Assembly (NCBI GenBank): GCA_965263355.1
Contig: CBDHHL010000046.1
Location: forward strand, 1 to 64,000
DNA from: Leptolyngbyaceae cyanobacterium
GTDB lineage: Bacteria; Cyanobacteriota; Cyanobacteriia; Phormidesmidales; Phormidesmidaceae
Direction of reading: 5' to 3'
Length of the DNA: 64,000 nucleotides
Made by a program: the position numbers and the translations under genes. The notes beneath the pieces were generated by a model. The model was given only the letters and a program-made list of their open reading frames with translations. It searched no databases and had not been told where the DNA came from. This document shows positions 18,130 to 49,322 of the stretch, piece after piece (within the stretch, counting starts at the first letter, position 1; each line of letters opens with the position of its first letter).

Positions 18130-18613
18130 CGTTTGGGTCCTCTAATTGCCTTCGTGTTTGAAAACTAAGCCTAGCGCCCGTCGGAGACATCCCAATGGCA
18201 GTGCGAATAGTTATGTCTCTTGGAATTTCCTGAACCCTTAGGTGTCGCCCAGAAAACGGTAATGGGATTTTTGCCTCTTCAGGCAATACATGATGTAATG
18301 GGACCCTTAGCTTCGCTATTTGGCGACTCTGATTGGGTCGCACAGGCGTAATGGCTAATCCGCTTGGTTGGAGGGTCGCTTCTCCTAAACCTTCCACTGA
18401 GTCCAATAAAACATCTTTGGAAGCCAGGATAGGGTCATCTCGAACCAGTTCTTCTCCCTCTTCCCACTCTGTTCGACCTTTTAAAGCTCTGGCCTTGATA
18501 TCATTAAATCGATTTACAGCAGAGCCAAAGCTCACAGCTGCGGCATAGGCTCGTAAAACTGCTGGACTCCACTCGGTCTTTTTACCGTCATTTCGACGAA
18601 CTCTTACCTTCAT
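18107..18613 (-). CDS. Hypothetical protein in the morphogenesis operon
   Basis: Overlaps both neighbours on the same strand. Confidence 0.55.
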   Translation of the reverse strand: MKVRVRRNDGKKTEWSPAVLRAYAAAVSFGSAVNRFNDIKARALKGRTEWEEGEELVRDDPILASKDVLLDSVEGLGEATLQPSGLAITPVRPNQSRQIAKLRVPLHHVLPEEAKIPLPFSGRHLRVQEIPRDITIRTAIGMSPTGARLSFQTRRQLEDPNDDPDNKR

Positions 18614-18939
18614 CTAGAACCATCCCCACCTGACAACATATAAGCCGCACCGCCGCCAACAACCCCAGCACCCATCAACTGATTAGCCCCTACCCTACCT
18701 GCTAAATGCCCATTACCCTCACGATAATTAAATCTCTTAGAAAGCTCATACCCATCTTTAGCCCCTTCTTGTATAGATGCGATAAGCCTTCCCAACTCTC
18801 GACCCCTAACAGAATGCACAATACCTCTAACAGTTCCTCGAACGCCACCACCAACACCACCCAAAACATTCAAAGCATCTCCAAGATAGGTTCTTGTGAA
18901 AGCTATCTTCTGTAATTCAGTCACAAAAGAATCTTCCAT
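18610..18939 (-). CDS. Small Gly-rich basic protein with F-x-x-E-L-x-K-I-A leader (candidate internal head protein)
   Basis: MEDSFVTELQKIA; ATG overlaps the upstream TGA; C-terminal GAGVVGGGAAY. Confidence 0.7.
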   Translation of the reverse strand: MEDSFVTELQKIAFTRTYLGDALNVLGGVGGGVRGTVRGIVHSVRGRELGRLIASIQEGAKDGYELSKRFNYREGNGHLAGRVGANQLMGAGVVGGGAAYMLSGGDGSR

Positions 18940-19430
18940 CAATAATACCCCCAAAATGAATTGATAAATAAATAACTGGAGTGAACTCCAGGACCTCCTT
19001 GAAGCGCACTCTCAATGTTATGGGCAATTAATATGCGCTGCTTCTTTTGCTCATACTCTGACTTCATTATTTGTAAAGTTGCCTGGATCATTTGAGGATT
19101 CTCCACTTGCATGTTTATCCCCCCGTCAGAATAACTAATAAAATTTCTGAGGTGCAGAAACATCAATGACTCAAGTAATGATATTGCTGCACCTCGAATA
19201 AAGACATGATTCCAGCGATTTCGAATAATACCTTCTAAAGTCCCATCGAAAACAAAAGGAGGAGTAGACGCCCAATCGCTTAAAGTATCCAAGATACTCC
19301 AAGCAATATGCCGGTCGCTATGGTCCAGACCTTTTGTTAGTCGATTCAAAGCAGCATAGTCCCTAAGAAAATACCGAACATTCTCGACCGTGTCCTGCAT
19401 CAAAGGATTATTTAGGTCAGCAACCGACAT
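18939..19430 (-). CDS. Probable head completion/adaptor protein
   Basis: VRYFLRD N-terminus, SYSDGG; helical; lies between capsid and neck genes. Confidence 0.6.
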   Translation of the reverse strand: MSVADLNNPLMQDTVENVRYFLRDYAALNRLTKGLDHSDRHIAWSILDTLSDWASTPPFVFDGTLEGIIRNRWNHVFIRGAAISLLESLMFLHLRNFISYSDGGINMQVENPQMIQATLQIMKSEYEQKKQRILIAHNIESALQGGPGVHSSYLFINSFWGYY

Positions 19431-20347: not shown

Positions 20348-21472
20348 TTAATATTGCGCTACATCAGGGAAATGCAAACCGTCATCGACCTTATTGTTTT
20401 CAGCGCCTAGGTCTTCCTCAGCCGCTGGTAAAGCTGCCGCTGAACCAGTATCCAACTGGGTAGGACGTACACTTCCGCGATAAAGTTCTAATTTCCGTAC
20501 TGCGGCAATATTGATAATGCCCATACCAATGTCTTCCCAACACTGCCAGGTAATAACATTCGCAACTTTATCAATATAAAACTTCAACTTGTTCAGCATG
20601 TAAAACTTGCCGAAGAATTGCGGAGAAGTAAAACTGTAAATATTTCCAGGACGCAAAATGTCAGACTTAACTGTACGGCATACGCGCTTGCCTAGCATTT
20701 TGTTATATCGGTAACCTTCGACAACAGTCTCAGATTGAATCTTGTCGCCGTTGTCTTCTACAGTCCACTGTAGTTGGTCATCATGATCTGGTTCACAAAA
20801 TAGCAGAAGGTCACAACGAAGTCTGTTGCTACTATGTAGCTTGAACAGACTAACCAAGTCAGGGCGTTGTACAGGTCTAACTGTGAAGTCAGTTCCATCC
20901 GCAGCCAGCGCTAAAGAGCCCTTTACAACTGAAGTAGCTTGCGCATTTGCATTACCTGCACGAATATTAGTAGCATTATAGGCCACCGTCGTCGTCGTGT
21001 TTGTGGTGGTTTGTAGCGCCTGGACTGCTGCTTCAGAGTAAATAAGACCTTGTCGATCTTCAATCTCTTGAACATCATTTATCGAATTGTTTTCAATAAT
21101 TTTGGTTATAGGCGCTTCATAGGCAAGAAGCTCCTGTTCTGGTTTCTCAAATTTCTCGGAAGAGATTGTGAAGAATGGGATCTCTGCCTTTGGCGCTCTG
21201 ATCAATCTTGCGGTTGGCTCACCACGGAATGTCATGACCATTGCACGTGATTTAGGCTCAACATCAACAATCTTTACCAATGTATCGTGATTAGTAGAAC
21301 GTTGACAGTCCTTACGAGTCACTGGCTCAGGAGGAAGAATATGTCGAAAAAAAGAAGTCTCTCTAAGGCGGTCACGAATAAAGGTACCACCTACCTCAGC
21401 CATCTTCGCTTTGCCTTCTGCGCTGTCCAGCCGTTTGCTAAATAGTTCTACTGTAGCATCTACCAAGCTCAT
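20348..21472 (-). CDS. Major capsid protein (HK97 fold inferred)
   Basis: 374 aa; IRDRLRETSFFRHILPPEPV, EIPFFTISS, NDVQEIED; follows the protease, scaffold and decoration genes; GGAGG Shine-Dalgarno. Confidence 0.85.
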   Translation of the reverse strand: MSLVDATVELFSKRLDSAEGKAKMAEVGGTFIRDRLRETSFFRHILPPEPVTRKDCQRSTNHDTLVKIVDVEPKSRAMVMTFRGEPTARLIRAPKAEIPFFTISSEKFEKPEQELLAYEAPITKIIENNSINDVQEIEDRQGLIYSEAAVQALQTTTNTTTTVAYNATNIRAGNANAQATSVVKGSLALAADGTDFTVRPVQRPDLVSLFKLHSSNRLRCDLLLFCEPDHDDQLQWTVEDNGDKIQSETVVEGYRYNKMLGKRVCRTVKSDILRPGNIYSFTSPQFFGKFYMLNKLKFYIDKVANVITWQCWEDIGMGIINIAAVRKLELYRGSVRPTQLDTGSAAALPAAEEDLGAENNKVDDGLHFPDVAQY

Positions 21473-23568: not shown

Positions 23569-24390
23569 TTACTCCAAGCCATATTCAGCTGCGATCTCAA
23601 AAGCCCTCTGATTAATCAAATCTTCGAAAGATGCTTGTTTTTGCAGTTCTTGTTCAAGACGAGACTCAGCCAAGATATCTAAAAGAGAAGCTTCCTTCTT
23701 TTTGCCTCGCATCTTAGATACTCCATAAGCAGTACCACCAGCACCAGCACCATAAAGAGCACCTGTTTGAGCAGCGCCTCTCATAATATTCTTTCTTGCT
23801 TGAGGGAGGGTAGCATTTCGAACTGCGTCTGAAGCACCTCTCACAGCGCTACGCTGCTTCATCCCTTTTCGTAACCTCTTAGCCGTTGCTGCATCCCTAA
23901 GAGCCCCACCTGCCCGGCCAACAGCACCATATGCCTTGCCAGCACCACTACGAGCAGCACCGTATGCTTTGCTAGCAGCACCACGAGCCATTGAAGCTAC
24001 CGAAGCTTCTTTGTTCATAGCATTCAATTCATCTACGAATGCATGGGCCATGATTCTTCCAGAAGCATCTGCGTTCTCTGCAATCTTATGAAGCTCCGCA
24101 GTCTTCTCTTCATCTTCCTCGTCGTCTTCTTCTTCTTCTTCTTCTTTAGCTATTTTTTCCCATGCTGCAGCCGTTTCTATAGCCAAAACAGAATCCTCTC
24201 CAAACAATTCTGCAGCTACCTTATACAACTCAGGGATGGATAAGTTTTCCAAAGACATTTGATCGCCAGACTCTTTAAGGAGAAGGTCTTCTACAATTTG
24301 AGCCTGTGCTAGTTTTTCAACTGTAAGATCTTCCATTGTTGCTTGATCCGCGCCGTAAACCATATTCTGAAGGTAATCGTTCATAGACAT
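23569..24390 (-). CDS. K-x-A-rich head protein: acidic N-half plus a cationic GALYG module
   Basis: EKLA, KVA, EKIA, EKTA, KIA, KEAS (twice), KQAS; Gly/Ala/Arg-rich module between the two KEAS sites. Confidence 0.75.
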   Translation of the reverse strand: MSMNDYLQNMVYGADQATMEDLTVEKLAQAQIVEDLLLKESGDQMSLENLSIPELYKVAAELFGEDSVLAIETAAAWEKIAKEEEEEEDDEEDEEKTAELHKIAENADASGRIMAHAFVDELNAMNKEASVASMARGAASKAYGAARSGAGKAYGAVGRAGGALRDAATAKRLRKGMKQRSAVRGASDAVRNATLPQARKNIMRGAAQTGALYGAGAGGTAYGVSKMRGKKKEASLLDILAESRLEQELQKQASFEDLINQRAFEIAAEYGLE

Positions 24391-24467
24391 ATCAAATGCT
24401 CCACTGAGACAAATGTCTCACTACTATTTTTATTTTTTAAGCATGTCCTCAAGAGCGGGGAGCTCTC

Positions 24468-27419
24468 TCATGCTAAAGGCGAACCTTTTGTAGGTCCAAG
24501 TACTATTGCAGATGCCAGATCTCGGACAGCTTGATTGATAAGCTTGTCCTGCATAATAGCTTTTGCCAAAGTAGCACTACCCAAAGAGGCAAGGAATGGA
24601 TTTTTTGCAAGAAGTCTTCTTAAAAAGCCGACATCTTTTCCCTCTTCCATATCTCTTCTAGCACTCGAAGACAGGAGCAATACTACAGGCACTGTTGCTG
24701 CTGCTGTCCCCAAACTAGCCAACTCTGAAGCACTAGCCACCTTATGAAAGATATCAGAGTCTGTTAGGTTGAATACGGCTTGCTTCACCCATGGGTGGTC
24801 AGCCACAACCTCAGACGCGATATCCATCGATTGTTTAGCCATCTGCTCTTGATACCAAGCATAAGCACAAGCTACTTTCGCGAGAAGAGGAGAATCTTCA
24901 ATTTTTAAACTTTTTTGATCTCTTATTGGAGAAATTTTCAACTTTAAGATTCTTCGACAGAGTACCGGACGAAGGTATGACCTAGACTCTATCCAAGGTC
25001 TAAGTACTTCAGCAATGTTTGTATCGAACAAAGAACTGGAAATTTGACCACACCTTAGAGGACTTGTACCTGGCGAAAATATCAACCCGGAACGCTCCAA
25101 AGACTCCGCCAGTTGTGGATATCCGTTAGAGCGCAAGAAACAACTCTGAAATTCATCAGGCTTTAAATTGATGCCCAAGCCTAAAGCAGTAGATAAGACT
25201 TTTGAGAAGTCCTCTCGTGACAGGCTATCTTGAATAACTGATTGAAGACTGGGCTCAGAAAGATCCAAAACTTTAGAAACTAGTCCTGTAACACCACTTG
25301 GGCTAATTACCTTTTCTAAATCAGCGACCTTTACAGAAGCTTCTTTAGTAATACCAGAACCAGTGGCATGTGTTTTTTTGCCTTCAGATGCCCAAACACG
25401 TTGCCTCTTTCTAGCTTTATCAAAATTAGAAAACAGATCTTGAAGATCTGTTGAAGCAGTCTTTTCTTGTATAGGCACCTCTAATTTTAAAAACATGCCT
25501 CCATCTTGTAAGGAGCTATTCAGAAAAGGCTTAGGATACCTATTTGAAGCAGACCCTTTTGGAACATCCGGCCCACCATGTTTTTTTCTCCAAGACTGGT
25601 ACAGTTCATGAACCTTATCTGCATGCACAAACTTAGCTCCTATATCCATAGATGGCCAGACTAATCGACCGTCCTCGTCAGCAGACATAGTTGCTTTTTC
25701 CACATCTAGGGTCTTAGTGGCTTTAATAGCATCTCTTAAAATTTGAGAACCGATTCCACGTCTTCGATATGCAGGCTTCAAATATAAGCTATCATATTCA
25801 ACTCTGTGTTTTGGGTTGAGCCAATTTTTGTGCAAGGACAAATCAGCCGTACCATAAGAAAAAGGATGTTCTCCCTCTTCCATAAAAATAGGCCTACCTT
25901 CTTGATCTGTCATTTCAACCGAAGCACTGCCCATATTCCAGAGTCCCCACAAAGCAGGACCTTTAGACCTTATTGAGATGTCCGCAACACCCTTATCTTT
26001 GTAGTTACGTATGTCCACCGCGTCCTCAAGGGCACGTTTCAATTCCTTGTGTCGTTCAGAACGTGGAATATCTTTCATACCAGCGAGTTTTGACACGTGT
26101 CTTTTCTTGTGTAACTTGCTATTTTTACTAGGGGCGGATCTTAAAGGTGACCCACAAATTTCGGACATAGGGGAATCCGCAGCCAGCTTCTGAGCTGGCG
26201 TAGAACGCAACATTTTCTTAAATGCCTCTACAGACATCTCAGTCATTGACCGCAAGAATTCGGGTTTGTCGTAATGTTCTAGATAAGCCTGTTTGGCCTC
26301 ATCAATGGTATTGAAGCCAATCATAACTTTGTCTTCATCATAGGCGCCCTTATTTTGACCCCTAACAAAGTTCTGGTGAGCCACAAATACCTTGGAGCTG
26401 TCTAAATTTTCGCCCACGTAGACATCAACGGCATCCCCATCAACACCTTTAGTGCCCTCTATCTCTCCGTAGTGTACCTTCATCCGGCGAGACCAAGTCT
26501 TACCCGTCCTCCAAGTACCTCTTGGCACTTCTATGTTCAGCTTTAGTCCTTGCCAAAGAATGGTCCCGGCATAAGGTTTCTGTTCTCTGTGAGGAGGTGC
26601 TACCAAGTTTCCATAGAGTTCTTCAGCATCAATAATGGACTGAGGAGTACCGGAAGCGAGTTTTGCCATCGTCTTGGCTGTTCGATCAGCCCCTACAAAA
26701 ACAAAACTTATGTCGAAAAAGTTTGGGTAAGGATTAATTACTCCAACCTGCCGACCATCACTTAAAATCCTATTCATTCCAAGTTCAGTCACGTGGACAC
26801 AATAATCCTGTGGGGTGCGGGATTTGTGTCCACAGATGGTGCATATGTCGTAGGGTGTGCGGCAGCCCATTGAAACATCTGGTAGCTCTCCTCGATCAAG
26901 TCTAGCTAGAAATGTTTCAGCACCGTGCAACAAAGCTGAAGCCCTGTTTATCAGAACAACAAGCTCAACTCGTTTCATTCGCGGATTTAGACAAGACAGA
27001 ACAACCTTTCCAAAAGCTCTATTCGGGTCTTTATTCTTATGGTGCACAAAAGGATGGGCCTTTAAGAATGTACTGTAACCGTAAGGAGGTATTTTACGCT
27101 GAGTAAACGTGTCAATTGGATGGTTTGGAGGTCCTAATGTTTGTGCACCACAAAGGGCTCTTTCCACATCACAGTGATGGCTTAACGCAGGCCAGTAATA
27201 ATTATCTCCATTCCTATTCTGCCCCCAGTACTCAGAACCTCCCAGAGCATTCACGAGCACGGCTAAATGCTCTTGATCTGATTTGTACGTCCTAAGCCAA
27301 TCTCGAACCTCCGGGACGTAATCTCCTGCCAAACGACGTATGGAGCTGCCTTGTCTAAAAAGACGAAATATAGGATCCCCAGAAAAAGGCATCGAAAACG
27401 TGGAAAGCTTGGTTAGCAT
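24468..27419 (-). CDS. Prohead protease fused to an inorganic-pyrophosphatase-like domain, a GNAT domain and a C-terminal region
   Basis: Protease: HHKNKD, DVSMGC, CTICG, FFDISFV..GAD. PPase-like: NIEVPRG, YGEIEGTKGVDGDAVDVYVG, DEDKVMIGF. GNAT: LYLKPAYRRRGIGS. Start placed at MLTKL after the upstream stop. Confidence 0.8.
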   Translation of the reverse strand: MLTKLSTFSMPFSGDPIFRLFRQGSSIRRLAGDYVPEVRDWLRTYKSDQEHLAVLVNALGGSEYWGQNRNGDNYYWPALSHHCDVERALCGAQTLGPPNHPIDTFTQRKIPPYGYSTFLKAHPFVHHKNKDPNRAFGKVVLSCLNPRMKRVELVVLINRASALLHGAETFLARLDRGELPDVSMGCRTPYDICTICGHKSRTPQDYCVHVTELGMNRILSDGRQVGVINPYPNFFDISFVFVGADRTAKTMAKLASGTPQSIIDAEELYGNLVAPPHREQKPYAGTILWQGLKLNIEVPRGTWRTGKTWSRRMKVHYGEIEGTKGVDGDAVDVYVGENLDSSKVFVAHQNFVRGQNKGAYDEDKVMIGFNTIDEAKQAYLEHYDKPEFLRSMTEMSVEAFKKMLRSTPAQKLAADSPMSEICGSPLRSAPSKNSKLHKKRHVSKLAGMKDIPRSERHKELKRALEDAVDIRNYKDKGVADISIRSKGPALWGLWNMGSASVEMTDQEGRPIFMEEGEHPFSYGTADLSLHKNWLNPKHRVEYDSLYLKPAYRRRGIGSQILRDAIKATKTLDVEKATMSADEDGRLVWPSMDIGAKFVHADKVHELYQSWRKKHGGPDVPKGSASNRYPKPFLNSSLQDGGMFLKLEVPIQEKTASTDLQDLFSNFDKARKRQRVWASEGKKTHATGSGITKEASVKVADLEKVISPSGVTGLVSKVLDLSEPSLQSVIQDSLSREDFSKVLSTALGLGINLKPDEFQSCFLRSNGYPQLAESLERSGLIFSPGTSPLRCGQISSSLFDTNIAEVLRPWIESRSYLRPVLCRRILKLKISPIRDQKSLKIEDSPLLAKVACAYAWYQEQMAKQSMDIASEVVADHPWVKQAVFNLTDSDIFHKVASASELASLGTAAATVPVVLLLSSSARRDMEEGKDVGFLRRLLAKNPFLASLGSATLAKAIMQDKLINQAVRDLASAIVLGPTKGSPLA

Positions 27420-27426
27420 CTTACTA

Positions 27427-29016
27427 TTACTTCTTTCTTTTTTTCTTTCGCTGATATGCCGCAGCCCCACCAACTGCAACTCCCCCATAGAGGGCCCCTG
27501 ATCGCGCTGCGCCTCGCCTTATTTTTTCTCTCCCATATTGTTTCATTGGCTCCGCGAGGTCCTTAGCGTTAGTTATAATCTCTTGGACACGTGGCTTAGA
27601 ATATAGATGGCCTAGACGTTTAGCATTTAAACCCTCTCTAATATCCCTAAAGGTTGCAGCATTACGCACACCTTTTAATACTTTCTTAGTCCCAGACAAG
27701 ACTCCAGCCGTTTTGGGCGGAGCTGATAAAAAGGAGCTTTGCTTCTCTTGGGATTTCTTTTTATGTCTCTGATATGCCGCGGCGCCAGCGCCAGCAACTC
27801 CTCCATATAGAGCCCCTGATCTCAACACGCCTTGCCTTATTTTTTCATTTCCTGAGTCTTTCAAATTTTGACTCGTAGCACTCCAAGAATCAGAGCTCTT
27901 ACGAGGATGAAGTCTTTGGTGATCACTTCGAGCATACGTATTACCTCGCCTTCTAGCATTTAAACCCGTTCTAATATCTTTAAAGGTTGCAGCGTTAGCC
28001 ACACCCCTTACTGCTTTTTTAGCCCCAGACAAGACTCCAGCGGTTTTAGGTTGGGCTAAATTTTTTTGGACCAAGTCATAAACTGAGCTCTTCTTTTCTT
28101 TAGATTTTGCTCTTCTATAATATTGAAAGGCACCGCCTGCCCCTATTGAAGCTGCACCATAAAGTTTTCCAGCATCCTTGCGCCCTTCCGAGACCAAACG
28201 CTTACCGTATGCCGCCTGAACATCTCTAGCAAGCCCGCTTGTGTCTCCTAAAGTTTTTTGTAGCTTTCTGCCTTCTCTCACCTTTTTCAAGGTAGCTGTA
28301 TCTCCCAACCCCTTAGCTATATTTTTTACCGTGGATACAACGGAACTTTTCTTTTCTTTAGGTCCAGGCCTAGAATTTTTGCCTCTAGAGTCTTTGTTTT
28401 TTGAATCATCAGTTGGTCGAGGTCGTAAGGCTTCTTGTTCTTGTCTGACTCTGGGATTGCCTTTTCCAAAGGCTATATCTGCCATACCCGGCTGAATTAT
28501 CATAGATGATTGACCTGAACTTCTAGCCAGACTCTCTCTGGCTCTTACAAGCTCATTGACGGTCTGTATAGGCAATCGACGCATGTCTATGACTTGTTGG
28601 ACAAACTCTGAAGCTACCAATGGATCAGATGCATATTCTGGATTTAAATTATGCAAAGTATTAAAAGCCAACTCCACTTTGCCTGGATCTGCTTCTGCTA
28701 AACCATCATTAACAGCAAGCATATTGTTGAAAGCTATCTCTTTCCTTTGCCTTGATCCAATAGAGTTGATCAACTTTCGACCCTGATCTACTGCTGTGTT
28801 TGCCGCAGCATAACCAAGTGTTGCTAGACCTGCCGTAGCTAAAGACTCGCCAACATTTCTAAAAGCTTGTCCAGCATCGAGAGACATCTTCGTTAGCAAG
28901 TCTTCCAACTCTGTTGAGACCCCAGCATCCTCACTAGCCTGCTTCAAAAGTGAATCAGCATTTCTTCGAGCTTCGATAATCTCTTCTTGTGAGAAACCCA
29001 TTTGTTCTAATAACAT
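27427..29016 (-). CDS. Head-module protein with three tandem cationic Gly-rich C-terminal modules
   Basis: Repeated KTAGVLSG...NAATF.DIR.GLNA...EKIR.G..RSGALYGGVA...AAAYQR. Confidence 0.8.
   Translation of the reverse strand: MLLEQMGFSQEEIIEARRNADSLLKQASEDAGVSTELEDLLTKMSLDAGQAFRNVGESLATAGLATLGYAAANTAVDQGRKLINSIGSRQRKEIAFNNMLAVNDGLAEADPGKVELAFNTLHNLNPEYASDPLVASEFVQQVIDMRRLPIQTVNELVRARESLARSSGQSSMIIQPGMADIAFGKGNPRVRQEQEALRPRPTDDSKNKDSRGKNSRPGPKEKKSSVVSTVKNIAKGLGDTATLKKVREGRKLQKTLGDTSGLARDVQAAYGKRLVSEGRKDAGKLYGAASIGAGGAFQYYRRAKSKEKKSSVYDLVQKNLAQPKTAGVLSGAKKAVRGVANAATFKDIRTGLNARRRGNTYARSDHQRLHPRKSSDSWSATSQNLKDSGNEKIRQGVLRSGALYGGVAGAGAAAYQRHKKKSQEKQSSFLSAPPKTAGVLSGTKKVLKGVRNAATFRDIREGLNAKRLGHLYSKPRVQEIITNAKDLAEPMKQYGREKIRRGAARSGALYGGVAVGGAAAYQRKKKRKK
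27430..28050 (-). repeat. Intragenic imperfect tandem duplication with 333-bp period
   Basis: CCCAGACAAGACTCCAGC-GTTTT-GG recurs at about 27691 and 28024, along with other shared blocks such as CGCCTTATTTTTTC/TGCCTTATTTTTTC. Confidence 0.9.
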
Positions 29017-30011
29017 TATACATTACCTCTTCTTAATGGATTTTTGGCTGAGGGGTCTCCAGCCGTACGACCTTGAAGAGCCCCAGCAGTTGCCATTGAT
29101 GACGCACCTAAGCCTGTCGCTATTGTTTTAGGTGCGTTTAAAACCCCGTTCAGCAGTGTCTTGGCTACGGAAGATTTTTTCTGAAGCTCCCCATACACCT
29201 CATCCATACGTCTCAATCTATCCTCACTATCCTGCCTAGCAAATAACAACTCTGCTTGTTTTTCCAAGGCAGTAATATAACCACAGAATGATCGGACCAG
29301 AGGATCTTCAAAATTGGCCAACTTCTTAGGCTGTCTGGAAGCTTCCAGAGATTGGTCTAAATGCTCTCCTAAATCAGACAATACTGCATGCGCATATTTT
29401 GGCGCATAGGCACTTACCAAATTTACTACATCAGATACATCACAACCATTGCCTAAATACTGGCTAGTTTTAGTGTGAAAATCTGATTGAGCTTGCTTTA
29501 GTAAAATCCCATTTCCTCTTATGCCGTCATCCAAATCGCCCACTACGTGCTGTAACCCAGCTCGTAATGTTTCGAAGTTAGATAAACCATCGTCATCACA
29601 GTCCGCAGCGATCTTCTCAGGGTTGTAAGAAAATAGTTCCTCTAAAACCCTATCTTCTTCCTTGCTCTCAAAATTTGGAAGCTCACGAGAATAGTCTGAA
29701 CACGCAGCAGTTTTTACAACTGGAGTAGCTAACAAGTTCAATGTAGATAACACTGCTTTAGGTTCTGCTATCTCAAACTCGATAGTTTTTTGAGCCTCTT
29801 TTTGAAACCCGAAAAGAAAAGTGTTGCGATTTGCAGACTCCACAACTCGACGTACCTGTTCTGAAGTCATGTCCGATTGTGCTTGAGCTAATTTAACCAC
29901 AGCATCATGTAATGAAATGTCCTCGTGGAGAAACATCTTTGAAGCCGTCTTGCCCATTTCTTCAAGGTCTATTGAATTACTACCACCAAACATCCCCAAA
30001 TATTCTTGCAT
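29016..30011 (-). CDS. K-x-A-rich head-module protein
   Basis: Start MQEYLG with GGAG Shine-Dalgarno; KTAS, KLAQ, KEAQ, KTAA, KIAA, KQAQ, KLAN, KQAE, KKSS. Confidence 0.75.
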   Translation of the reverse strand: MQEYLGMFGGSNSIDLEEMGKTASKMFLHEDISLHDAVVKLAQAQSDMTSEQVRRVVESANRNTFLFGFQKEAQKTIEFEIAEPKAVLSTLNLLATPVVKTAACSDYSRELPNFESKEEDRVLEELFSYNPEKIAADCDDDGLSNFETLRAGLQHVVGDLDDGIRGNGILLKQAQSDFHTKTSQYLGNGCDVSDVVNLVSAYAPKYAHAVLSDLGEHLDQSLEASRQPKKLANFEDPLVRSFCGYITALEKQAELLFARQDSEDRLRRMDEVYGELQKKSSVAKTLLNGVLNAPKTIATGLGASSMATAGALQGRTAGDPSAKNPLRRGNV

Positions 30012-30052
30012 TAGGACTCCTGACTCAGAAAAATAACACACAGGAAAACAGC

Positions 30053-30376
30053 ATGGAAAACAGTACGCCATTAATTTCAATTGAAGAAACTGCAGCCCGA
30101 TTAGGGAAGTCTGTTTCCACAATTTATCGCTTGTGCAAAAACCATACGCTACAGATGCAAAAATGTCCGATAACTCAAATATCTAAGATATCACTTCAAA
30201 GTGTAGAACGATACAGACTAACAAGACTCAATGTTATAGACCAGCTGCTTAACCGGATTGATCAGTTAGAAAGGAGAGTAGCTCACCTAGAGAAAGAAAA
30301 ACTCGAGACAGGCGAGTCAAAGTCCCACAACCCTAAAGCCATAAAAAATATATTGAGAGACATCCACGATATCTAA
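30053..30376 (+). CDS. Excisionase/MerR-like HTH DNA-binding protein with coiled coil
   Basis: LISIEETAARLGKSVSTIYRL; LLNRIDQLERRVAHLE. Confidence 0.8.
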   Translation: MENSTPLISIEETAARLGKSVSTIYRLCKNHTLQMQKCPITQISKISLQSVERYRLTRLNVIDQLLNRIDQLERRVAHLEKEKLETGESKSHNPKAIKNILRDIHDI

Positions 30377-32110
30377 TCAAACAATGTCCAACTCTTCTCG
30401 ATATAGTCCTTCATAAAGAATATCTTCCGTCTTTTCTGGGAGAATAACATCACGACGAGGCTTGTACTTCATGGACGCCAAAAAGCAATAACACAAAGAG
30501 TGGAAAGTATCATCAGAATCACTCGGGCCTCGCTTATAAACATTTTGCTTCATAGTTTCACTATATTCAGAAAAGATATTCAGCATATCTGAAGCAAAAG
30601 GTGATTCCCATTCAGACCAGTTAGGAAATTGAAATACATTTCTACGCTTTACAGCATTAAAAACGTCAGACATAACTTCCGTGCGATGGCATAAAAATCT
30701 TGGCACTCCTAAAGACGCCTCATAAGATACTTTCTTCTTCTGCCTACCTATCCACTGATAGCGACATATTTTTTCCGCCCCGAATCTCCGTACAAGCTTA
30801 TCATTTTGATAAAAGCCTCCACCGTAGTCCACCCCAATGTAAATCACATTAAACATCTCGCACAGACCAAGTATGATATCCAATTGATGGTCTGGTTCTG
30901 CTTCTTTTCCCTTGCACTGCTTGGCGTAAAAAATCGAAAACTTGTGTGGAGCCCAAGGAAAATAGCCACCCAGCAAAATAACAGTGAAGGAGTTTTTTTC
31001 TCCAGTACCCCAGTCGATACCCATGAATACTGGATGTGCAGCATACTTCTTCTTCACATCAGCATAAGCAAACATTGAAAGCTCTTCAGAACAGTTATCT
31101 AAAACATCTTGTTGAGTTAATGGGCGGGTACCGGAGTCAAAAGATCTACCCAAAACCTCATTATAAAATTTAACCCGAGAATAAGTCTCATACTTACTTA
31201 TGATGTCCTGCCAATGAATCCAACTTACAATCAACTGAGGAATTCTATAACCCATATATGGATTACTCAAACGAACGTTCGGATTCATAGAAGCCCATTG
31301 AGCATCAGGATCATTTGGGTCAATCCGTTTCCCGCATTTGTCGCAAATAAGGCCAAATTTACCTATAGAGGCCTCAGAGGTCACATTCCAATGCCAAGAA
31401 CTAGGATCGTTTGGAGTCCCGTGCGAACGACAAGGAATCACCCACTCATTTTGCGTAGAGAATTTTGACCAGTAATGCTCGATTGCATTATCTAATGATT
31501 TAGGTGTACCGGAATATGTAAACAGCCTATGCTCAGAGTGAGAAGCACACTCTTCTATAACAGGAATATTGTCTAACAAGACATCCTGAAACTCATCGAT
31601 GGTAATCAGATCTGCGGGGACTCCACGACAACGGTCAGCATTCAAAAATGCAAAACGCAAAGATACTTTAGAACGATTAATAAACCCCTTTTCCATGAGG
31701 TTCGCTGTCAATTTCACATTTGTAAAAGATTGAAGTACCTTAGAAGTCTCTATGGCCTCTTGAATCCTAGTTCGAGAAAACTCTTTTGTTTGCATGTGTG
31801 ATGGAGAAACATACAAAGCTCTAAAACCAGGAAACAAAAATGCATAAGATAACATCTTGTTCCCAAGCAAAGTTGATTTCTCAACCTGCCTGCCCGCCAT
31901 TAGAAGTAGACGATTAGCATCTGTGTCGTAAATCTCTCGAAGGTACGGCCGACCTACAAACGAAAAATTGGTGTAATCTCCTTTTACTGGAAGAAAAAAA
32001 GCCGCCTCAGTGAATTCAGAAATGGAAATAACCAAAGTCGCATCGTCTGCAATACGGTCTTCTGAATACTCATCGGTCAATGGCTTGTCAAACCGAGCAG
32101 CATCATCCAT
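30377..32110 (-). CDS. Terminase large subunit
   Basis: RPYLREIY, variant Walker A AGRQVEKST, Walker B ITIDEFQD, SGTPK, nuclease MGIDWG, DDTFHS. Confidence 0.9.
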   Translation of the reverse strand: MDDAARFDKPLTDEYSEDRIADDATLVISISEFTEAAFFLPVKGDYTNFSFVGRPYLREIYDTDANRLLLMAGRQVEKSTLLGNKMLSYAFLFPGFRALYVSPSHMQTKEFSRTRIQEAIETSKVLQSFTNVKLTANLMEKGFINRSKVSLRFAFLNADRCRGVPADLITIDEFQDVLLDNIPVIEECASHSEHRLFTYSGTPKSLDNAIEHYWSKFSTQNEWVIPCRSHGTPNDPSSWHWNVTSEASIGKFGLICDKCGKRIDPNDPDAQWASMNPNVRLSNPYMGYRIPQLIVSWIHWQDIISKYETYSRVKFYNEVLGRSFDSGTRPLTQQDVLDNCSEELSMFAYADVKKKYAAHPVFMGIDWGTGEKNSFTVILLGGYFPWAPHKFSIFYAKQCKGKEAEPDHQLDIILGLCEMFNVIYIGVDYGGGFYQNDKLVRRFGAEKICRYQWIGRQKKKVSYEASLGVPRFLCHRTEVMSDVFNAVKRRNVFQFPNWSEWESPFASDMLNIFSEYSETMKQNVYKRGPSDSDDTFHSLCYCFLASMKYKPRRDVILPEKTEDILYEGLYREELDIV

Positions 32111-33892: not shown

Positions 33893-34354
33893 CTACTCAA
33901 CATCCAGTAGTTGATCAAGTTGTTCTAAAAATTTATCCAACAAGCCACCCTCTTGACTTGAGGCTCCCATAAGACCTTCAAATAATAAAACGTAGGATTC
34001 TAGTTCAGGAACAAAAGAGCATTTCACATTTCCCATCCAAACTTTAGAAGCACTAGTATGCAGCAACTTCGGAAAATTTTCTGGAAATTTTAGTCCGTCT
34101 ATTTTCTGCTCACAGCGGCCAGGTACATAAGTTTTCTTGACCCACCGCCCCAAAAAATACGTATCCTCCCGACCTGCCCTAGGAAATAGTTGAACGAGTA
34201 ATCCTTCCTCTTCAACACGCCAAGAAGCAAAAAAGGTAGTAAAACAAGAGATCATCTGAAGATTCTTAGGCAAGGGAATCAAGCAAGGCTCTGCCTCTTC
34301 AACCATTTGCTTGCACAACTCAATTTGGTTTTCCGTCGTCGGAGTAACTTCCAT
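33893..34354 (-). CDS. Hypothetical protein
   Basis: Operonic ORF. Confidence 0.6.
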   Translation of the reverse strand: MEVTPTTENQIELCKQMVEEAEPCLIPLPKNLQMISCFTTFFASWRVEEEGLLVQLFPRAGREDTYFLGRWVKKTYVPGRCEQKIDGLKFPENFPKLLHTSASKVWMGNVKCSFVPELESYVLLFEGLMGASSQEGGLLDKFLEQLDQLLDVE

Positions 34355-35153
34355 TGGATGATACTAAACGAAGATCGGGTGCCTTTGTTGACCTTTTTTC
34401 CAAAACGAAATTTTTAAGCTGCTTAATAGTGCTACTCATCTGAGCACCTTCCCCAAAGCACATACTATGTAGGTTAACCAACTCCCTTGAATACTTGGCC
34501 ACAAGTGCAGCTGTCTCTGGAGTATCTGGCGCATTCCGAAGAGCATCCAATCGCATGTAAACCATCAAGTGTGTCTCTACCAGGGCAGTTCTAGGATCTA
34601 CCTGAGGATTAAACCCAGCGCGCCACAATGCTTGATCTTTCGTCCCTTGGAGGGCTGCCATATAAGCATCTTGACATGACATTCCTGCCAATAAAGCGTA
34701 CCATTGAGCAGCAGAACAATTATCTATATCCCAAAAATACTTAGCATACTGATTTATCACTTCTTCTGAGATCGAGTACTTAAACCGCTTCTCCACACGA
34801 AGACAAATCTCTGACACATCTAGACGTCCCAGAGTTAGAATCTCAATAACTTCCTTTATCTGAGGTTTGTACTGCAACTCTAATGTTTTCTTAAGCGTAG
34901 CACTCGGAAACCTAAGTTCAGATACACCCAACAAAGATAACCACTCTTGAGTATATTTGTGCCTTGGGCTACTCCAACGAACTGATTGCAAAGGCTGGGC
35001 CTCTAACAAAAGTCTATCGAAAACATCTTCAGAAACCTGAGGCAGGTTAAACGCAGACAGTATCAGATTGACTGAACTGAATTCAACTTGGTCTCCTTTT
35101 GCAATATCTTTTGCAATCAGGAACTTGATATATAACTGGCTTGGGTGCCCCAC
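34320..35153 (-). CDS. Hypothetical helical protein
   Basis: GTG start with GGAGG Shine-Dalgarno; operonic. Confidence 0.65.
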   Translation of the reverse strand: MGHPSQLYIKFLIAKDIAKGDQVEFSSVNLILSAFNLPQVSEDVFDRLLLEAQPLQSVRWSSPRHKYTQEWLSLLGVSELRFPSATLKKTLELQYKPQIKEVIEILTLGRLDVSEICLRVEKRFKYSISEEVINQYAKYFWDIDNCSAAQWYALLAGMSCQDAYMAALQGTKDQALWRAGFNPQVDPRTALVETHLMVYMRLDALRNAPDTPETAALVAKYSRELVNLHSMCFGEGAQMSSTIKQLKNFVLEKRSTKAPDLRLVSSNGSYSDDGKPN

Positions 35154-35163
35154 AAGAACCTCC

Positions 35164-37089
35164 TCAGGAAAACTTGACTTCTTTGTTCTTCAATGTCTTT
35201 AGGCCTTTGACAGTATAATCTAGTGCGACAAGTGCTCTTTCAACAGCAGTTTCTGGGACTTCTGTTATGCCTAATCTTATCGCTATAAGCAATTCTGCTA
35301 AAGAGGATAGAGTTCTTTCAAACTCTGGAATCAAAGTAACAAAAGTAGCTAAGTTTTCAGGGGTAATAAATCCCAAACTCAGGATTCTATCCACCGTCAA
35401 TGTATTTGGGATGACGGCAGCCTCTTTTAATAAGAACTGGGGCTTTGGCAAATCAAGACTAGACAGATCTTGAGCTAACAATGCCTTTGCCTCTTTTAGT
35501 TTGAGATGGTGAGGAATTATTGCTTTTGATGAAGCAAATTTTACTGATCCATGTAGCTCAGCCAATGAGAACAATTCTGGCAAATCTTTGGGATGTAAAC
35601 CACCAGCAACAGCTAGAAACTCAGCGGCACTCTTTGTCATAAAGTGCCTACTACTATCAAGATTTTGATAAGGAAACCCTCTTAGCGAGTATGAGGCTCC
35701 ATCATATATTAATTCTGCTGTCTTTACATTCTCATCTATCAGCACCTGTGAAGGTTCATCCACTAAACTTAGAGGATTTTCTTCGTCCAGCAGCATCCAC
35801 TTATAAGAAGCAGGTAAACAGATAACGCCGTCTATACCCACTGAAGGGGATGATAATTCAGCAAAAAAACAAATATCCCGTGTCAATCCCGAATGCGGAA
35901 GACTGACGGAGTATACCGCCTCCCCATCCGGAGAAACAGAAGATGCCACAACTCTCATGGGTGGAAAACATACAGCTTCCCCATCCACATAATGATAAAG
36001 GATCCCAAAACCCCCAAAAGGATCCTCAGGTAGTACGGTAGCTTCTCCAGAATACCGACCTGCTACTAAAGGCTGGTAGCTATAATTTATACCATTTGTA
36101 AACACAAAGAAATCGCTCGGTTGACCCGTCAAGGTTACAGTTGGAATGGCTATTCCTGCCAGCTGTTTTCCACTGACATCCTGCACGACCCAAGTCCCAT
36201 GCCTATCTATCAAACCAAATGAAGCGTGCTTTTTGAGAATTTTTGCTTTTGATTCTTTTGTAGAAAAAACAACACTACCCTTTTGTTCAAGTTCTTTAAA
36301 AGCTTGCTTTACTAATTGTTTGGCTGCTCTCCTATCTAATAGTTGACTTGTTTTTTCGTAAAGATCACAATTCGCCCAATTAACCTGATAGGTATCAGTG
36401 TCAGTTTTATTTACTTGAATAACATCTGGAGGAACACAGGCAGTTTTAACCGTGTCTAAGTCTGACTGGCTTATTGGTTCTAATTGAGCCGCCGTGTGGA
36501 ATGCGGCTCGAACTCCTGGGGTTGCAACAGTACTAATATGATTTAACAGAGAAGCTTCCTTTAACTTCTCTTGAAACTCAACACATTGAGTTGCATTAAC
36601 TTTGCCCTGTAGAGCGACCAGTGCGGAACCAATTTTAGTGGTCTCTACTGGAGGTTGTAAAGTAGAATAGATACTGGACTCTGGAGGTCGATTTCCAGTG
36701 GCAGAGAAAGTCTCTGGTTGAAATAGTGCCGCACGTAATCGTTCTTCGTTCAGAGGATAATACATGCCATTAAACTGAAAGACATCCAGTGGACTCATTT
36801 TGGAGTCTTTAATAATGACAGGAATCATGACAAGTTTTGGGGATTGAGTGGGTCTGCCTTGGTTTCTTGGTATAGAAGCAACAACTACAGAACCGTAGCC
36901 AGTCCCCTTATTTTCATCCACTTGTATAAGTTGTACGGTTACCTGAAACTCACTAAGATAAGGAACCTGAGAAAACGCCTCTGACAAAATCTCTGAGTTC
37001 CACTGCTCAACATTATCACTTAAAGGAGTCAGCATACCCGCAGACTTAGAAATGCCAAATCGTAATTCTGTATCAATAAAAATGGACAT
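35164..37089 (-). CDS. Large K-x-A-rich protein, candidate virion head protein
   Basis: KSAG, KEAS, KTAC, KHAS, KTAE, KSAA, KFAS, KEAK, KEAA. Confidence 0.65.
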   Translation of the reverse strand: MSIFIDTELRFGISKSAGMLTPLSDNVEQWNSEILSEAFSQVPYLSEFQVTVQLIQVDENKGTGYGSVVVASIPRNQGRPTQSPKLVMIPVIIKDSKMSPLDVFQFNGMYYPLNEERLRAALFQPETFSATGNRPPESSIYSTLQPPVETTKIGSALVALQGKVNATQCVEFQEKLKEASLLNHISTVATPGVRAAFHTAAQLEPISQSDLDTVKTACVPPDVIQVNKTDTDTYQVNWANCDLYEKTSQLLDRRAAKQLVKQAFKELEQKGSVVFSTKESKAKILKKHASFGLIDRHGTWVVQDVSGKQLAGIAIPTVTLTGQPSDFFVFTNGINYSYQPLVAGRYSGEATVLPEDPFGGFGILYHYVDGEAVCFPPMRVVASSVSPDGEAVYSVSLPHSGLTRDICFFAELSSPSVGIDGVICLPASYKWMLLDEENPLSLVDEPSQVLIDENVKTAELIYDGASYSLRGFPYQNLDSSRHFMTKSAAEFLAVAGGLHPKDLPELFSLAELHGSVKFASSKAIIPHHLKLKEAKALLAQDLSSLDLPKPQFLLKEAAVIPNTLTVDRILSLGFITPENLATFVTLIPEFERTLSSLAELLIAIRLGITEVPETAVERALVALDYTVKGLKTLKNKEVKFS

Positions 37090-38292: not shown

Positions 38293-41200
38293 TTAGTATT
38301 TCCATGCTTCATCTGGGTTCTTGGATTGCCCAAACTCTAATCCAAATGCCGCAGCGGGGATAGGGTGTGTTCCGTGCAGATCACTGACCCATCCTTCAGC
38401 AGCGCCGTCAAGGATTGTATCTTTTAAGTGCGTTGCCTGCATCCGAGCAAGCCAATCAGACCTCAATTCTCTTGGAAGAACGTTGGTGCCTTTAAGGATT
38501 GGTCTAGCAAGTAATTGTTCCCCTTTAGTCACTGAGGAATTGTATCTGTTCACCTCGGAAGCAGCAACCTTGTCTCCCTTTAGGAAAGTTGGGTGGTCTT
38601 TTGGGTCTTCTATCTCCGCCAAATTGGTAAGCGTCCTTACAAACACTTCCGCGTTTTTACGCAGGATGGGCGTACGGCTATAACCACCCAAGTTGGTCAG
38701 TTCATCCGTAACGTAATTTCTTACAGCAGAGATGCCAGTTAGTGGAAGCATCTCCAAAGGATTTTTAGGGCCGCCAGAAAGTGCATCTCCTTTTTTAACT
38801 TTTTGCCCCTTAGACACAACAGGAGATTGTCTAGCAGATAAATAATGTTTAGTGCCCGACACATAAATATTCCAACCTCCAACCACTTCATCTTTTTCAA
38901 TCTTGTCTATATTGCCAGATTGTTTAGATAGGACTGCGGAACCTGGCAAATTCTGTGGGAACTTCACCAGCTGCACAACCCGGTCAAACTGACTTGCCAC
39001 ATCGGAACCTTTGGCTCCAGCAACGCCACCGGTGTGAAAGGCATTCATAGCCATCTGTGTCAAAGGCTCACCTATTGCGTGCACAGCCTTTACTCCCAAG
39101 TTGTCTCCCTTTTCTGGGAATTGACCCATTTCATTTAGACCATAACAACGAGAGCACACGCCATCATGAGCTTGGCATTTTAGAGGTGTTCGTGCAGTAA
39201 AGGCTTTTACTCCGTTGTTCTGCATGCGCGTGAGCATTTGGGGCGTAACCACTTCTCCCGCCTTCAGAACACCCTTGCCTTTCAAAGAAACATCCACAGC
39301 TAAAACCCTATCGATAGCTTGATTGTCTGTGGGCGAAAACATGTTTCCTTCTTTCGTTCCACAATCTATCTCAGACACCAGATGGTCCATAGATGTCTGC
39401 ATCATCTCTTTTACCTGAGCACCAGGAAGCTGCGTTCCCTTAACACGACCAATAGTACCCTTTCTAGCGCCATACATAGAAGCCCAATAACTAGCAGTAT
39501 CCAAACCTTCAGAGTAAGACTTCTCTATAGAAATAGGGACAATACGCTCTTTACTGTCAACAACTGCAAGAGGTGTGATTGTCATTTGCTTAAACTGGTC
39601 CCAGTTACCTCTGGCTTGAGCCTTAACCCACTGATACATCTTGTTATTAGATTTATCGAATTTGGGCTTTGTTGCCTTATCTAAAACAATGCGAGCCTTA
39701 TTGTACAACTCTGCAAGAGCCTCATTTCTCTTGGCCTTGTTTCGAACTGACTTGTGGATCTCTCTTTCTCTTTCTTTAACTTGACGAAGGATATTATCCC
39801 TAGGCCCTTTCATGGCCTTAAAGTCTTCTAACCCAAAACCATAACCAGTCGCATGCACATTACCCATGTCCTTCAATGTGTCCGCTACATCCCGAAAAGT
39901 TTCTGCATCAGCTTTTTGCCCAATCTCACTCAAAAGCTTAGTTAAGTTCCTCTTATCAAGTTGTTGACCTTTAAATAGGTGCTTATATTCCTTAGGGAGT
40001 GATTGCTCTATAAGCATACGTCCAACTGTGGTGTGCTTAGCTTTATTTTCAGAGGCCTTCTTAATTCTATCCTGCAAGAAATTAGGGACCTCTTTCGTCG
40101 CATCTCTGATCGTAACTACGTCTGTGATCCCAATCTTTCCTTGTTTAACCGCTTTGGCTGCCGCAGCACCTGTTTGAAACACCAAGCCTGTTTTCTTTCC
40201 ATCTGTTCTTGTTAATTGGTGCAGCCCCAATAAGGATTCATGAGTAGGTCTAAACATCAGACCTCCATGAGAAGAACTAAACAGGTTTTTTGACGGAAGC
40301 ATTTTCCAGGCCTCATCTACCGCCTTATTAGAAATAGGGACAAAGGCAGCCATCTTATCTCCGTCAAAGTCGGCATTAAAACCACCTGTAGCGAGAGGGT
40401 GAATTTTAATCGCACTGCCTTTTGTCAAGACGGGCTTAAAGGCTTGGACGCCGTATTTATGTAATACAGGGTCACGCTTCAACAGTACAGGCCTGCTTTT
40501 CATCTCAGCTTCTAACATGTTGTAGACGATCGGCTCTTTGTCTTTTATAGCCTGCACTGCTTGTCCTGGAGCATAGCCAGATTGTCTCATTCGTCGCATG
40601 ACGAAAGGTTTATAAGCCGCCATTGCAGCAGATTCAGGCAAAGCGACCTCATCCATTCCCAAACTAGGCTCTGGAACGATTACGCCTCGCATGGACATAT
40701 CCTGCCGTTTACCAATGACTTTAGATTGGAAGAAAGCATTCTTCGGTTGAGTCATGCCCGACTTTCCGCCAATCAACTCAAGGATGCCCTTTCGGTGTCT
40801 TTGTTTGTACTCCATCCCAGTTAAACTCAGACCCTTTAGACCGTCATACAGACTGGCACCCAAAGATGTCATTTCTTCCGCCTCTTTTGGTACACCTAAA
40901 TCTTGGAGATCTTTTAACTGTGTGTTTATCGTACCCAACTGACGATACATCTCAGTCACATCGTCAGTCCTTATGTCACCGCTATCTAACACAGTTACTG
41001 GTCGCATTTTGGGCGGTAACACAGGAATATGTTGTAGCGTATACGCCTGACGTGCATTCAACTTTCGCTCATTCAGCACTCTCAGATATTTTATTTTTCT
41101 AGAAGCATCATTTAACCTGGGGCCTTTCAAACCTTGTACAGAAGCTTCCAGCTTTTGTAACTCACTACTAACATCGATTTTATCTAGTGCAGAAACTATA

Positions 41201-46702: not shown

Positions 46703-47335
46703 TTATTTCCCCCTCACCCGTCTAGACTTCCGCCCTGGTTTGCGGCCAGCCAAACGATCTATTCGCTTACCTACGTATTTACCTACTTCGGCCGCACCGA
46801 TAGTAGCTGGAGCGGAAGCAAGTAACCCAGTCCCTCCAGTCAAAACGCCGCCTGCCGCAAAACCTAAGTTTTCTCCTATGGCTTCACCAAGTCCTTGGTC
46901 AGATTGCCCTCTAGCTGCTGCTGCGATAGAAGGTACAGCCATAGCTGTACCCACAACCATTTGACTCTTTGCGCCTACTGGAGCATATTTCAATGCTTTG
47001 CTAGTACCTGTCCAACCAGACCGAGAAGCTTGTTCTGCAAAACCTCGATATCCCGTTGCGCCAGTATCACCCAATAAATGCTCACCCTGTCCGAAAATAT
47101 CCCTAAAAACACGAGAAACAGGCCCACTGCCCTTATTTGCTATGGCTTTCTCATCTATGGTTGGAGCAAAAGCATCCCAACCTTCTTTTAAGCCCTTACG
47201 ACCTGACTTCGTTCGGCGGCCTATCGTTAAAAGGTCCTTTACCACTCCCCATTCTCGAGGGTTCCATGTCATGGGATTTAACTTCTTCTTAGCCATAGCA
47301 ATCTTTTGAAGCTCTAAAGTGAATGCCTCATTCAT
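46703..47335 (-). CDS. Basic Gly-rich protein with F-x-x-E-L-x-K-I-A leader and glycine-zipper-like C-terminus
   Basis: MNEAFTLELQKIA; GLGEAIGENLGFAAGGVLTGGTGLL...GKYVGKRID. Confidence 0.75.
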   Translation of the reverse strand: MNEAFTLELQKIAMAKKKLNPMTWNPREWGVVKDLLTIGRRTKSGRKGLKEGWDAFAPTIDEKAIANKGSGPVSRVFRDIFGQGEHLLGDTGATGYRGFAEQASRSGWTGTSKALKYAPVGAKSQMVVGTAMAVPSIAAAARGQSDQGLGEAIGENLGFAAGGVLTGGTGLLASAPATIGAAEVGKYVGKRIDRLAGRKPGRKSRRVRGK

Positions 47336-49231: not shown

Positions 49232-49322
49232 CTCTTCTTGCATTCTAGTTCAAATGACGACTGCACCAAATAACCTTGAAAATTGCTCGTGAACTCACGT
49301 CACTCCAGTTTATACAGCCTAC

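Follow-up and report, generated by a model that had tools for sequence, protein, structure and literature searches.

In phage T4, as described in PMC9026906, about 300 copies each of small basic internal proteins (IPs) are carried in the head; they bind DNA in low salt, are non-essential and poorly conserved, and are largely ejected. The same account has the T4 scaffold cut to small fragments, one IP blocking a restriction enzyme, and the roles of IPII and IPIII unresolved (PMC9026906). A locus which may produce comparable head cargo by a different route lies in a 64,000-nucleotide stretch filed under Leptolyngbyaceae cyanobacterium (positions 1 to 64,000 of contig CBDHHL010000046.1, assembly GCA_965263355.1; “the window” below is this whole stretch). 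Two of its genes, here called A and B, encode four related basic, Gly-rich modules (A1, A2, A3 and B; Table 1). Sequence comparisons establish these as homologous cassettes in an acidic carrier, with an optional slot and a distinctive pattern of the motif Lys-x-Ala (K-x-A). The best explanation, to which we give a probability of about 0.6, is that they are basic Gly/Ala cassettes freed at K-x-A and kept in the capsid as DNA-binding peptides of 10-12 kDa, maybe ejected later; by analogy with the T4 IPs, which they resemble, they are best read as a new form of internal head cargo that a protease matures.

Each module contains 20-24 Lys plus Arg against 3-7 Asp plus Glu, with an isoelectric point (pI) of 10.4-11.7 and a mass of 9.2-11.9 kDa; the surrounding parts have a pI of 4.1-5.7, in keeping with the original prediction, made from the DNA letters alone, that gene B is acidic around its module. 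Two blocks are common to the modules, AT-x-K/R-x-I/V/L-R-x-G and G-x(4)-G-A/K-L-Y-G, and after both come a charge-free Gly/Ala run of 16-21 residues and a basic tail. The seven bordering sites translate exactly as predicted, and the four modules lie where they had been placed. Local alignment scores for all six module pairs (80-239) were above those of all 2000 composition-keeping shuffles (maxima 57-76). That module B might resemble the others by composition alone had been raised as a point on which the idea could fail; its similarity beat 2000 of 2000 shuffles. The gene-B module of a related protein, P0013, also bridges the two genes, scoring 119-154 against A1-A3 (154 against A2) and 212 against the window's module B, with shuffle maxima of 62-95 (n = 1000); on both grounds, a low-complexity artefact was rejected as the source of the fourth copy.

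By family matches the window belongs to a large tailed phage, with a terminase (30377-32110) and a major head protein (20348-21472), as well as a baseplate-hub-like gene, a DNA polymerase A and a single-chain beta/beta' RNA polymerase (38293-44493); the contig encoding the gene A protein has 162,553 bases. Genes A and B lie either side of a 983-residue protease gene (24468-27419), and are flanked by the terminase, major head protein and head-protease family matches. The first 255 residues of the protease gene are modelled with a T4 gp21-like fold (predicted local distance difference test, pLDDT, 84; predicted template modelling score, pTM, 0.81), the best structural match being T4 gp21 itself (5jbl; Z 9.3, root-mean-square deviation 2.7, 130 residues aligned) and the next ones herpes proteases. 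Foldseek likewise ranks the T4 gp21 family first, yet at an E of just 0.06-0.14, and nothing meaningful was matched when the protease profile was run against sequences of solved structures. His and Ser are invariant across the orthologs compared, and a K-x-A (K253, A255) closes the domain in nearly all of 56 sequences. The lineage of this protease is represented by 407 confirmed protease matches in one viral collection; its identification with moraphages was rejected, as the moraphage marker is a family B polymerase in the account of PMC12619734. A longer, 1006-residue start for the protease (27488) was also rejected, since orthologs start at Met 27419.

The distribution of K-x-A is the main argument for cutting. 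It is above shuffles (z 2.9-7.0) in seven window genes (21945, 22291, 23569, 24468, 29016, 35164 and 48122), and not above them in gene A or in the terminase, capsid and polymerase genes of the window. Across loci it is enriched 3.3-fold in family X, 3.5-fold in D, 2.3-fold in B, 2.2-fold in the protease and 1.9-fold in C, with 1.23-fold in the capsid and 0.82-fold in the terminase; the consensus is hydrophobic-E-K-[LTVE]-A-[SAEG]. Inside the cargo the direction reverses: in 27 non-redundant gene-B slot modules, trimmed blind to the motif, K-x-A occurs 10 times against 39.3 expected (about four-fold depleted), and A-x-K 48 and R-x-A 42 times against 39.3 and 21.7. The depletion recurs in 11 held-out metagenome modules (4 against 14.3) and in 10 narrow-family modules (5 against 15.6), and seven window proteins used as controls do not show it (18 against 17.6). 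We consider this test within the cargo, where Lys and Ala are abundant, the most informative one; a directional motif dense in carriers and avoided in cargo is as expected of a cut site if the cargo has to survive. The T4 protease motif is hydrophobic-x-E, and this T4-type Glu motif does not stand out here (0.97-1.36-fold in head families, 1.09-fold in terminase). The cut would fall after the Ala of K-x-A, for which herpes assemblin is the analogue.

The original prediction had the modules released as small peptides at both K-x-A and K-x-S sites. Release at K-x-A by the head protease is likely, given a motif dense around the modules and depleted inside them and an adjoining T4-gp21-like protease; K-x-S is doubtful as a cut site, being enriched in gene B only (1.64-fold). 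A predicted digest of gene B at K-[TEQLIV]-A gives eight pieces of 6-31 residues whose net charges run from 0 to -11, while the remaining piece has 105 residues and a net charge of +19; from gene A, cuts at K-x-A only would give A2 as 111 residues (net +16) and A3 as 92 (net +18). The acidic carrier (gene B, or the leader and core of gene A) would thus bring the module into the prohead core, where the protease would cut after K-x-A, reducing the acidic parts of B to pieces able to exit the head and sparing the module because it avoids the motif. A weakly hydrophobic Gly/Ala helix with basic ends would most likely pack against other copies. A2, A3 and B could be freed by K-x-A cuts alone, and A1 only if K-x-S were also cut; since K-x-S is weakly supported, A1 may remain attached to the gene-A core. 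The released peptides would stay in the capsid and may be ejected with the DNA; that they bind the packaged DNA is likely from their charge and by analogy.

Some basic Gly-rich proteins of cultured phages are relevant here. The protease is about 35% identical to those of three Vibrio phages and of Salmonella phage Arash (4 of 218 matching records cover 80%), a myovirus (PMC10585845). In these cultured relatives the head genes contain many K-x-A sites. Among their products are Arash gp224 and Vibrio phage D69 VPHD69_0272, basic Gly-rich K-x-A proteins from a head cluster that has the same protease family; unlike the cassettes they are separate genes, and by profile they fall outside the narrow module family. 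Arash gp224 was found in purified particles (8 peptides, 222 spectra; PMC10585845 Table 2). The same list is unselective, with 116 proteins, and covers the acidic scaffold-like gp223 and gp225 at 80-100% (PMC10585845); being this broad, with acidic proteins covered almost fully, the Arash proteome neither shows nor excludes processing.

That breadth is one of several observations which weigh against release and retention in the head, another being the lack of a match between gp224 and the narrow module profile. Gene A orthologs have K-x-A at only 1.12-fold (5 against 6.2 expected in the window's gene A), and the window's four modules taken alone have 2 against 5.1, which is not significant (161 of 2000 shuffles were as low). 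The excess of R-x-A in slot modules was not replicated in the held-out set (7 against 5.8), and the related sequences in all these motif counts are not independent samples. K-x-S is not avoided within modules (13 against 12.3 expected), and 11 of 32 filled slots have K-x-S as their sole 3' site. Finally, in the large phage SPN3US most head proteins can stay uncut, according to PMC10052503.

The modules belong to a family that appears in several proteins. A profile built from the four, a search which the original prediction had proposed, finds exactly four copies in the window; run against 1.84 billion protein representatives, it matched eight proteins, the window's own and seven others. These relatives (hosts assigned by inspection) include two B orthologs, one A ortholog with a single module (P0003), a scaffold-like protein, an acidic B paralog, a stand-alone protein of 109 residues (P0004, with an 18-residue leader ending in K-E-A) and a 296-residue protein with two copies, so that no fewer than five kinds of host protein carry related copies, which supports the view originally taken that the module moved between genes. 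In six parsed relatives it is preceded by a K-x-A site. Two further B orthologs were matched by a 12-member profile, which among 10,166 distinct open reading frames (ORFs) of fetched loci found L087 and a partial L028 (no reversed-sequence match was below E 0.35). With the same profile a search of short proteins gave nothing at E 0.01, and it also missed the family's own member P0004, so the family's size is underestimated. Iteration of the profile drifted to a different slot module (L039, L043), counted as marginal, and the module alignment varies too much to serve for scanning loci. No close relative with DNA context turned up in viral contigs (searched with the module region) or metagenomes (searched with gene B): the closest, P0002, P0003 and P0013, are known as proteins only, P0003 and P0013 probably being encoded on one contig of 49,141 bases. 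Genes A and B and 12 family members matched nothing in PHROGs or Pfam (a weak blank, IPs being poorly conserved), and no Pfam or NCBIfam family fits the modules. In the ESM Atlas, A3 matched viral clusters only, at 0.81-0.86, and the gene-A core had no match.

In gene B the module occupies an optional slot. B-like ORFs are present in 80 of 85 loci; among 62 distinct ones with both anchors, the slot is basic and at least 40 residues long in 36 and short or acidic in the rest, and 32 pass a stricter Gly-run filter. Eight B-like ORFs lacking an anchor were left out of this count, five of them being labelled by eye for mapping on a quick protease tree of 66 rows, where L047 was also relabelled as filled by eye. 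On this tree, which cannot separate slot gain from loss, 39 slots are filled and 27 empty, with at least 11 changes of state, of which starred branches force 7, where shuffled labels give 21: the slot is clustered on the tree, yet frequently gained or lost. Of the eight closest B relatives, two have this module, four a different Gly/Ala module and two none; the median pairwise identity of slot modules is 0.33. A small charged peptide with P-P-F or F-P-F before the 3' site is found in the short slots of the B orthologs L012, L034, L037, L111, L112, L114 and L116.

The gene-A core is present in 85 of 85 loci. Among 75 distinct orthologs of the fetched loci, C-terminal modules are found in the window's gene A alone, and a profile search gave no module match in 44 A-like ORFs of later loci: gene A appears to have acquired the module rarely, with tripling in the window phage. 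The EKKSS and EKQSS ends resemble the 3' ends of gene-B slots, and the K-x-S site 5' of A1 aligns with a K-x-A site in P0003. The simplest and most likely history is a move of the cassette from the gene-B slot into gene A, followed by amplification. A2 and A3 are a tandem duplication with a 333-nucleotide period at KTAG sites, originally described as recent. The period stands, and the age does not: the two conserved blocks (offsets 333 and 318) are 78% and 76% identical, with silent divergence of 0.21 and 0.46 and a saturated middle, so the duplication is not very recent. With pN/pS of 0.13/0.21 and 0.14/0.46, these blocks are under purifying selection. An assembly artefact was rejected as the source of the two copies, which are only 76-78% identical.

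The alternative that survives best, although we consider it unlikely, shares the release step and differs in the target: the freed modules would be ejected membrane-active peptides, whose Gly/Ala helix oligomerizes in the host inner membrane and makes a small pore, depolarizes the cell, blocks superinfection or shields the entering DNA. Several properties of the Gly/Ala run would suit this. Its charge-free length has a median of 17 residues in 38 modules (15-23 in 29 of them; shuffled median 11), its flanks are basic, an aromatic residue lies near its end in 22 of 38, and a G-xxx-G-xxx-G-like pattern is found in 4 of 4 window modules and 27 of 38 of the wider set, a count made without a shuffle control and partly expected from Gly content. 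The fast-diverging middle between the duplicates and the turnover of the slot among close relatives are also as in host-facing proteins. What the run lacks is hydrophobicity: KD19 is 0.47-0.94 in the window modules, with a median of 0.86 and a single value at or above 1.6 among the 38; an ordinary membrane segment of the window scores 2.22. The case for the predicted glycine-zipper-like membrane segment is weaker than first put: its length and basic flanks are membrane-like, its hydrophobicity is low. The N-terminal amphipathic helix, also predicted, is likewise weaker than first put, its hydrophobic moment being matched by 10-44% of 500 shuffles. The model of A3 is all-helical, with three helices (pLDDT 72.6, pTM 0.48), and a fold search with it gave no match at E 0.001; Pfam glycine-zipper and toxin families had no match to 12 members at E up to 1, although short low-complexity segments are easily missed in such a search.

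An ejection channel, as first suggested, is unlikely, and an essential one especially so, because the module is optional (the slot is empty in about 27 of 66 relatives), it has one marginal hydrophobic stretch, and Arash, a relative in culture, is a myovirus; the channel proteins of the T7 gp14 kind described in PMC8954989 are about 200 residues long, have several predicted membrane helices and are essential. The gene-A core has at about residues 45-80, past its K-x-A leader, a helix and a Gly/Ala stretch kept lineage-wide; if an essential role is sought, this segment would be a more promising candidate than the modules, which are optional. Action of the modules on membranes after ejection by some means is a minority prospect, as is its fuller form, in which a plug-in slot between K-x-A sites loads swappable cationic glycine-zipper peptides that are injected as membrane-active effectors, the cargo evolving motif avoidance and the cassettes spreading by copying from one head gene to another and multiplying to form polyproteins.

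More doubtful still is the idea that the modules stay attached, K-x-A marking a helical or binding repeat and the basic tails tying the scaffold to DNA or membrane during assembly. It would fit with release being a prediction from sequence alone, with A1 being bordered by K-x-S only, and with the near-complete coverage of precursors in the Arash particle list (80-100%; PMC10585845). A repeat of this kind would not explain why the motif is directional in cargo (K-x-A avoided, A-x-K not) while dense in carriers, or why K-x-A closes both the protease domain and the stand-alone leader. Least probable is that the modules are near-neutral low-complexity filler, spread by duplication or recombination between repeated cut-site codons and tolerated since it is trimmed off: many relatives have an empty slot, the middle is saturated and slot modules have diverged widely, but filler bound for destruction would not avoid the cut motif, the conserved blocks are under purifying selection, and the same layout recurs lineage-wide.

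Table 1. Modules, their bordering sites and the predicted protease domain (window coordinates; lengths and residue numbers in amino acids, aa).
Feature	Position	Strand	Basis or remark
Gene A, 529 aa: acidic leader to K-Q-A (aa 25-27), lineage-conserved core, three basic modules	27427..29016	-	ORF
Module A1, aa 225-311, 87 aa, bordered by two EKKSS sites; Gly/Ala run 28117-28164	28084..28344	-	
Module A2, aa 327-428, 102 aa, 3' of PKTAG; Gly/Ala run 27769-27819	27733..28038	-	
Module A3, aa 438-529, 92 aa, from PKTAG to stop; Gly/Ala run 27451-27501	27430..27705	-	
Gene B, 273 aa: acidic scaffold-like carrier, 8 K-x-A sites, one optional cargo slot	23569..24390	-	
Module B, aa 130-235, 106 aa, KEAS site on each side; Gly/Ala run 23716-23778	23686..24003	-	
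EKKSS before A1, possible weak K-x-S site	28342..28356	-	translation
EKKSS at end of A1	28084-28098	-	translation
PKTAG before A2, predicted K-x-A cut site	28036..28050	-	translation, motif statistics
EKQSS at end of A2	27733-27747	-	translation
PKTAG before A3, predicted K-x-A cut site	27703..27717	-	translation
KEAS pair bordering module B	24001-24012 and 23686-23697	-	translation
Prohead protease domain, start of 983-aa gene 24468-27419	26655..27419	-	predicted cutting enzyme

Other K-x-A-rich or Gly-rich proteins were seen in the window and its relatives. Two proteins lacking annotation and lying outside the head cluster (35164-37089 and 48122-49243) are rich in K-x-A (z 4.1 and 7.0) and are probably further core proteins; by inspection, Arash gp218 and gp219 resemble the products of 35164-37089 and 34320-35153. 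Two small basic Gly-rich proteins (46703-47335 and 18610-18954) have a near-identical short leader ending in E-L-Q-K-I-A and are likely stand-alone cargo of the same class. Near the head cluster of other loci, basic Gly-zipper proteins are fused to an apparent J-domain (H-P-D, by eye; L040:532-1332, L050:704-1549, L072:2360-3058 and L024:3-1274). The protease gene itself has an InPase domain (E 5e-37) and a GNAT domain placed between K-x-A sites, where the orthologs L001 and L003 carry other inserts, resembling a second cargo slot.

Elsewhere in the window, the RNA polymerase (38293-44493) is a 2066-residue protein with beta and beta' in one chain and no enrichment of K-x-A (11 against 14.1 expected); the Arash RNA polymerase subunits are separate proteins, and the most abundant in the virion. 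The DNA polymerase A gene (57085-60357) is split by an intein-like segment with a weak LAGLIDADG match. A small helix-turn-helix gene (29912-30376, + strand) lies on the opposite strand between the terminase and the head genes, a position kept in L001, L002 and L003.

If cargo release at K-x-A is correct, it would provide a sequence rule for head content in a widespread lineage: motif-dense acidic carrier discarded, motif-free basic cargo kept. The function of basic internal head peptides could then be tested in a system other than T4, one that offers natural presence/absence variants and the cultured phages Arash and D69; loading foreign proteins into capsids is another possible use of a two-sided cargo slot. 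This is not a new kind of system; what the window adds is a single traceable family moving between genes, an optional slot and a motif-avoidance test. Neither a K-x-A phage protease motif nor the modules were found described in the literature searched, whose coverage mostly excludes subscription journals.

Among known systems, polyvalent proteins as described in PMC5512222 likewise have several units per chain, predicted protease separation and delivery with DNA, and the InPase and GNAT domains of the adjoining protease gene are typical of them; their units are enzymes, with an embedded zincin as the usual cutter, whereas the modules have no enzyme domain (PMC5512222). Genes A and B matched no enzyme family, and so are without the catalytic domains of polyvalent proteins. 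T7 gp14-like ejection proteins are also internal, helical, small virion proteins, but gp14 has four or five predicted membrane helices in its roughly 200 residues, is essential and has a measured pore, against 87-106 residues, one marginal stretch and an optional presence for the modules (PMC8954989). In SPN3US, by the account of PMC10052503, the prohead protease gp245 trims its ejection-protein substrates by cutting repeatedly at the three-residue motif A-X-E, so that long propeptides are lost and the mature internal proteins remain; multiple cuts are likewise predicted here. Its propeptides are terminal and its products large, whereas the product predicted to be kept here is about 100 residues long and flanked on both sides (PMC10052503).

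Closest of all are T4 IPI-III and gp21. Like the modules, the IPs are small (8-20 kDa), basic, non-essential, poorly conserved head cargo (PMC9026906), and gp21 has the same fold as the window's predicted maturation protease. T4 cuts after Glu, and the motif predicted here is K-x-A; the modules differ also in their Gly/Ala helix, poly-Lys tail and lack of a family match. A short N-terminal leader is found in the relative P0004 only, the window modules having no IP-type propeptide. The T4 IPs, as presented in PMC9026906, are separate genes with an N-terminal targeting propeptide of 10-19 residues, whereas the modules are internal, tandem or C-terminal cassettes in an acidic carrier.

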